Source: Octopus vulgaris
Taxonomy: Eukaryota
NCBI GenBank assembly: GCA_951406725.2
Contig: OX597814.1
Location: 56,358,001-56,422,000, forward strand
Reading direction: 5' to 3'
Length of the DNA: 64,000 nt
Both the position numbers and the translations under genes were made by a program. Below the pieces are notes generated by a model that saw only the letters and a program-made list of their open reading frames with translations, was not told the origin of the DNA and made no database searches. Numbering within the stretch: position 1 is the stretch's first letter; every line of letters starts with the position of its first letter. Positions 16,304-63,579 of this stretch are shown here, piece after piece.

Positions 16304-16413
16304 CTAACAAGCATTACAGGACTTTCTGCAATGCCGTAACATGTAGCCTGCATTTTTGTTGCAGTGATGTCCTTTGGCCCATGCTGCACATAACTGATTA
16401 TCATCTTCACAAC
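16304..16413 (-). CDS. Exon 17 (last coding exon): ShKT domain 8 and stop
   Basis: ttctatag acceptor. Reads (G)[35 protein letters not shown], then TAG at 16306-16304. Confidence 0.93.

Positions 16414-63579: not shown

Follow-up and report, generated by a model that had tools for sequence, protein, structure and literature searches.

An astacin with eight ShKT domains in Octopus vulgaris represents an old molluscan gene layout

Astacins are zinc-catalytic proteases that are secreted, held latent by an aspartate of their pro-domain and activated by cleavage, upon which the new N-terminus docks on a glutamate. Astacins with ShKT domains are reported mostly from barrier epithelia and gut. CreM12-ShK of Cumia reticulata joins an astacin domain to a cysteine array and 3 to 9 ShKT domains and has the same HEXGHXXGLXHEH motif as the octopus protein described here (Gerdol 2019, PMC6409789). 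The same paper gives eight ShKT domains for Arion and nine for Pomacea and Cumia, and suggests a convergent proliferation of these domains in predators. A further eight-domain protein from Mytilus coruscus appears as ‘8ShKT_MYTCO’ (UniProt A0A6J8APQ9) in the supplement of a family review (Gomis-Ruth and Stocker 2023, PMC9848320). Pf-ALMP of Pinctada fucata, likened here by description only, is a molluscan astacin with ShKT arrays and is assigned to a pan-molluscan clade (Gerdol 2019, PMC6409789). The sea-anemone ShK-type potassium-channel toxins BgK and OspTx2a and the ShKT domain of MMP23 have the six-cysteine fold pattern in common with the octopus domains, as weak matches (E 0.04 to 1.6). 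The sea-anemone toxins are free short peptides, whereas the octopus domains all belong to one enzyme of 755 aa and lack the dyad Lys-Tyr.

The octopus gene lies in a window of 64,000 nucleotides of the O. vulgaris genome (contig OX597814.1, positions 56,358,001 to 56,422,000). When the annotated O. sinensis protein is mapped back to this window, 17 minus-strand exons are found from 63579 down to 16304 (Table 1). All 16 introns within the window are GT-AG, none of the junction codons is a stop, and the exons sum to 2226 nt, i.e. 741 codons and a stop codon. Exons 8 to 16 are each in phase 1-1 with one module per exon. Compared over its full codons, the translation is identical to residues 15-755 of O. 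vulgaris CAI9715171.1 and differs from O. sinensis XP_029643131.1 at two positions. The 741-aa frame has no start codon; the ATG is on a further exon of 14 codons, about 7.6 kb past the window end (L008:8616, minus strand), and the gene therefore has 18 coding exons and encodes 755 aa. The two database records (‘zinc metalloproteinase nas-14’, 755 aa), which describe the same gene, include this 14-residue start exon. A six-frame scan of the window detects, on the minus strand, one zinc motif along with eight six-cysteine ShKT patterns (ending Cx3Cx2C), whereas 100 locally shuffled versions of the window all contain no such six-cysteine pattern. Searching a database with the zinc exon returns 82 proteins, the best being the 755-aa O. 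sinensis nas-14. The initial annotation had proposed a hidden 17-exon gene of 741 aa with an astacin domain and eight ShKT domains. For the window that structure is exact in its splice sites, protein identity and Pfam domains; the gene itself is not hidden, as it is already annotated in O. vulgaris, O. sinensis, O. bimaculoides, Argonauta and Sepia. One O. bimaculoides model (P0084) has no residues 351-398, the exon of ShKT 1, and is left with seven domains; an error in the model, a gap in the assembly or a skipped exon may be the cause.

Table 1. Coordinates of the gene and of neighbouring or related elements. Positions are those of the window unless a chromosome-scale locus is named; exons are numbered within the window.
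Feature	Position	Strand	Remarks
Exon 1 (second coding exon)	63423..63579	-	signal-peptide end and pro-domain start, residues 15-66
Exon 2	59329..59431	-	pro-domain including conserved ELDM aspartate
Exon 3	56663..56763	-	RKRR furin-type site and catalytic domain start
Exon 4	54061..54181	-	catalytic domain
Exon 5	52757..52826	-	catalytic domain
Exon 6	50913..51116	-	zinc motif HExxHxxGxxH, family glutamate, SxMHY Met-turn
Exon 7	48458..48593	-	catalytic domain end; joined to exon 8 by RNA contigs
Exon 8	36447..36563	-	six-cysteine module, EGF-like by pattern only
Exon 9	34749..34898	-	ShKT 1
Exon 10	31421..31495	-	75 nt, phase 1-1, tryptophan-rich 25-residue segment
Exon 11	27958..28092	-	ShKT 2
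Exon 12	24871..25029	-	ShKT 3; published peptide crosses exon 12-13 junction
Exon 13	23757..23882	-	ShKT 4
Exon 14	21600..21797	-	ShKT 5 and Thr/Pro-rich linker
Exon 15	20874..21023	-	ShKT 6
Exon 16	17259..17372	-	ShKT 7
Exon 17	16304..16413	-	ShKT 8; stop codon right after last cysteine
Non-LTR retrotransposon	39432-41177 and 42513-42884	- (gene strand)	intron 7
Tandem repeat	44346-44774		intron 7; 164-bp unit, 2.6 copies, 99% alike
Mariner-type transposase remnant	15232-16084	+	broken; Transposase_1, E 1.4e-8; just past stop codon
Tc1/Tc3-type transposase fragment	2-328	+	E 3.9e-14
Run of 25 ShKT exons	G000:C23:26,333,447-26,371,113 (L021-L025)	+	phase-1 splice sites
Run of 5 ShKT exons	G000:C23:26,406,602-26,413,795 (L028-L029)		phase-1 splice sites

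The protease part matches the astacins (M12A) by profile and by comparison with solved structures. Pfam Astacin (PF01400) matches with 173 bits (E 6e-51) over profile positions 1-188 of 189, the PDB astacins align over residues 110-312, and the catalytic domain (residues 111-311) aligns end to end with solved astacins. For the crayfish (PDB 1ast, 6ht9) and horseshoe-crab (8a28) enzymes this alignment has E-values of 1e-31 to 1e-33 and brings the zinc ligands, four cysteines and the Met-turn into register. HEXXHXXGXXH with the immediately adjoining family glutamate and the SxMHY Met-turn with its tyrosine ligand are present in the octopus protein and in 82 of 82 relatives. The crustacean and horseshoe-crab structures differ from it in having no ShKT tail and in retaining the arginine of the stability motif XXRXDRD, which comes after the glutamate. 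In the octopus protein D-R-D of this motif is kept and the first Arg is replaced by Leu; none of the 82 relatives keeps the Arg, and 75 of them have HEHQLP where astacins usually have EXXRXDRD. The review in which XXRXDRD is defined nevertheless keeps the mussel orthologue among the astacins (Gomis-Ruth and Stocker 2023, PMC9848320). The clade-wide change in exon 6 reads EXXRXDRD to EHQLPDRD, and a paralogue on C23 retains the Arg.

Upstream of the catalytic domain, the N-terminus has a hydrophobic core, and a signal peptide is marked ‘Y’ for the orthologous record in a published salivary-gland table (Almeida 2020, PMC7693380). The RKRR site of the initial annotation is present in exon 3, and the putative pro-domain is assigned to window exons 1-2; the aspartate motif is ELDM instead of the usual FXGDI, as it is in 60 of the 82 relatives, fragments counted. 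The EGF-like domain of that annotation is a different matter. The exon 8 module has six cysteines with CxNGG and CxCxCP, so that the resemblance holds for the cysteine pattern, but Pfam EGF families match neither exon 8 alone nor any of 22 aligned proteins, and a PDB search with exon 8 gives a single weak match (netrin-G1, E 1.2). For want of profile support the module is taken as resembling EGF by pattern only; Gerdol 2019 (PMC6409789) speaks of an uncharacterized cysteine array.

The eight-domain array was initially held to be unusually large. Pfam finds eight ShK stretches (PF01549) in the octopus protein, and eight is the commonest number among its relatives, present in 42 of 82 (nine in three of 82) and in 37 of 58 when only relatives with a pro-domain and a length of 450 aa or more are considered. 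These counts come from a profile seeded from seven of the counted proteins, with which Pfam agreed for all five proteins that have Pfam counts (8, 8, 8, 3; 8); a stricter pattern gives 6-8 ShKT for most gastropod rows. The relatives include a chiton, bivalves, limpets, sea hare, slugs, cuttlefish and argonaut. About eight ShKT domains are thus routine across chiton, bivalves, gastropods and cephalopods, and with such arrays already in print the claim of novelty is gone. The A0A6J8APQ9 protein of M. coruscus likewise has a signal, pro-domain, catalytic domain and eight ShKT, and differs in its longer acidic linkers, its 845 aa and its origin in a filter feeder.

A tree of catalytic domains (65 of 173 proteins, chosen by us from named ones with a whole catalytic domain) groups the octopus protein with proteins from chiton, bivalves and gastropods in a clade of 48 rows (99/96) that includes the M. 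coruscus protein (row P0115) and Cumia CreM12-ShK4, the sole CreM12-ShK sequence compared. Within this clade, whose backbone is not resolved, it is joined with other cephalopods (99/95); the row from a nemertean sits on a long branch. The other octopus ShKT astacin falls outside the 48 rows. Compared with positional profiles built from 38 other eight-domain proteins, seven of the eight octopus domains score best against the profile of their own position, whereas the eight are only 41% alike among themselves, which together indicate that the array is old and fixed. The eight-ShKT astacin is therefore an old and already known molluscan gene layout, and the position-by-position homology of its domains across molluscs speaks against the convergent proliferation in predators suggested by Gerdol 2019.

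Intron 7 separates the protease exons from the ShKT exons, and two neighbouring genes could in principle be mistaken for one at this point. The intron spans 11.9 kb and carries a reverse transcriptase frame, and one O. bimaculoides model ends after 357 aa. Exons 7, 8, 9 and 10 are nevertheless joined by contigs in four of four sequencing runs, which come from four studies (three presumed to be RNA, one of unknown kind, none with a tissue label); these contigs skip intron 8 exactly, and their loose ends are the exon 7 end and the exon 10 start. Judged by length, two single contigs (3116 and 2985 nt) could accommodate the 18 exons together with short untranslated ends, and full-length proteins are present in many molluscs. 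Together with the exon 12-13 junction, which is crossed by a published peptide, four of the 16 junctions are shown directly, while the remainder are supported by the identical annotated protein and by the full-length relatives. The joined contigs rule out separate genes, a reading to which we attach practically no probability, and uphold the single astacin-ShKT gene initially proposed. For this single gene a dedicated venom or salivary role may be considered, in which the protease would loosen the tissue of the prey and the ShKT domains, whether still attached or set free, would target its potassium channels. Among the rows listed for the O. vulgaris posterior salivary gland, the orthologous record A0A0L8GZ87 is represented by two peptides; there the record is classed with venom families and labelled ‘astacin-like metalloprotease toxin’ by homology (Almeida 2020, PMC7693380). 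In Cumia, five of seven astacin-ShKT transcripts are more than 100-fold gland-enriched (Gerdol 2019, PMC6409789). The closest solved structure to one octopus domain is the ShKT of a nematode metalloprotease (2mcr, E 9e-5), and two of the eight domains have Lys and another aromatic at the dyad position. Against this, the iBAQ value of A0A0L8GZ87 in the supplement of PMC7693380 is 1.2e7, versus 2.0e9, 7.2e9 and 8.1e9 for three major gland proteins, i.e. 170 to 690 times lower than proteins that we picked for high peptide counts and not from a full ranking. The protein is also found in skin mucus, with one spectrum (PEP 0.01) among the rows listed (PMC10138644), and the same layout is present in non-venomous bivalves, limpets and chiton. 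Lys-Tyr is absent from all eight domains, the dyad Lys is conserved at no domain position among orthologues (0 to 12 of 40-42 proteins), and according to the literature the dyad is neither needed nor sufficient. No furin-type sites were found after the catalytic domain or between the ShKT domains, where one KK lies in a linker. The Cumia proteins include six in a lineage-specific clade, five of them strongly gland-enriched (PMC6409789), an expansion not seen in the octopus: the genome holds at least 24 astacin matches, the next-best copy is 48% identical in the zinc exon (seven matches among 20 candidates), and the clade has one row per octopod species in the 65-row tree. A dedicated venom role of the octopus gene is thus unlikely, with a slim chance of being right. 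Of the secreted salivary, mucus or digestive protein initially envisaged, the gland and mucus traces stand, while nothing points to a dedicated venom role. Labels such as ‘astacin-like toxin’ in gland proteomes of cephalopods can have an ancestral gene of housekeeping type behind them.

The gene is probably the octopus copy of the old molluscan eight-ShKT astacin, likely a general extracellular zinc protease belonging to epithelia, connective tissue or blood cells and not a venom component. The parts of this reading that are directly documented are the gene structure, the domains, the exon 7-10 splicing and the orthologues in four mollusc classes. By analogy with the family, the signal peptide would export the protein and the ELDM aspartate of the pro-domain would block the zinc until a convertase cleaves; the RKRR sequence suggests a furin-type enzyme cutting after it. 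The freed N-terminus would then dock on the family glutamate, and the catalytic domain would cleave matrix, mucus or signalling proteins. The eight ShKT domains may stay attached as a binding arm that tethers the enzyme to a surface or substrate, with the exon 10 segment possibly tuning this arm. A hydrophobic tail, a predicted membrane anchor, ends 22 of the 82 relatives and fits work at the cell surface. Filter feeders and grazers retain the gene, and the oyster and apple-snail orthologues are described as present in all tissues with no tissue specificity (Gerdol 2019, PMC6409789), both consistent with a general role. Counting against it are the presence in the posterior salivary gland proteome (PMC7693380), the recruitment of relatives to salivary glands in the vampire snail (Gerdol 2019, PMC6409789) and the clade-wide Leu in XXRXDRD. 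In a narrower form of the same explanation the protein, like Pf-ALMP, would be an enzyme of haemocytes that serves in wound repair, immunity or cell proliferation, and blood cells would be the source of the traces in gland and mucus. Pf-ALMP is haemocyte-abundant and lies in the pan-molluscan clade of Gerdol 2019 (PMC6409789), and a low level in two unrelated samples fits a circulating source; Pf-ALMP is a putative orthologue by that description, and we regard the haemocyte version as doubtful. A squid ‘nas-14-like’ fibroblast marker (PMC9839350) was dropped as a lead, as its listed best match, XP_029654298.1, is another record and the likeness is one of analogy only. In row 1652 of the mucus supplement (PMC10138644) the peptide occurs in two transcript frames. 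One, of 760 codons, has a length that agrees with 755 codons preceded by four upstream codons and closed by a stop; the other, of 742 codons, corresponds to the 17 window exons alone.

The segment encoded by exon 10 lies between ShKT 1 and ShKT 2. In 16 aligned molluscan rows that hold it, a Pro is invariant and aromatic positions are conserved, and among 42 eight-domain proteins the spacing is long in 27 and short in 15. Seventeen sequence pairs, all gene models, were compared; eight pairs from seven species (five bivalves and two gastropods) differ by the exon 10 segment, seven of them by this segment alone. The difference is absent from the Physella, Mytilus, Babylonia and cephalopod pairs, and the segment is kept in four of four cephalopod pairs. 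In octopus, the contigs of the four runs contain only the inclusion form, contigs being a form of data that drops rare variants. One possible though tentative interpretation is that exon 10 is an ancient splicing switch, conserved between chiton and octopus and alternatively included in both bivalves and gastropods, that toggles a membrane- or partner-binding patch on an array serving as an ancestral targeting arm. If so, and taken together with the positional conservation of the eight domains in filter feeders and grazers, the published idea of convergent ShKT proliferation in predators and parasites would be overturned. No description of the cassette was found by title or abstract start among the literature matches listed; the conserved cassette is a testable lead.

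A much longer ShKT run is present elsewhere in the genome. On C23, after an annotated 473-aa astacin with three ShKT domains (P0134), comes an exon corresponding to the first 25 residues of this protein, and after that exon come 25 ShKT exons. Each of the two C23 runs is preceded by an exon identical to these 25 residues, with no zinc motif in between. The 25 exons are 76% alike on average. The C23 runs are candidate protease-less, secreted multi-ShKT genes from recent tandem duplication, and as far as sequence can tell it is this apparently young array, not the gene of the window, that is the unusual one. A single C23 astacin carrying 33 ShKT domains was considered and dropped, given the annotated protein of 473 aa and three ShKT. 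No description of the 25-exon run was found among the literature matches listed. Further clusters of astacin and ShK exons lie at G000:C3:94.35-94.44 Mb and C3:55.29-55.32 Mb, and C28 has three ShK matches of equal score in three places.

Several mobile elements accompany the gene (Table 1). In the retrotransposon of intron 7, a 582-aa open frame encodes a reverse transcriptase domain (E 1.5e-30), and a second frame, upstream of it, encodes a CCCH zinc finger. Judging by the size of the transcript contigs, the mariner remnant would overlap the 3' untranslated region in antisense.
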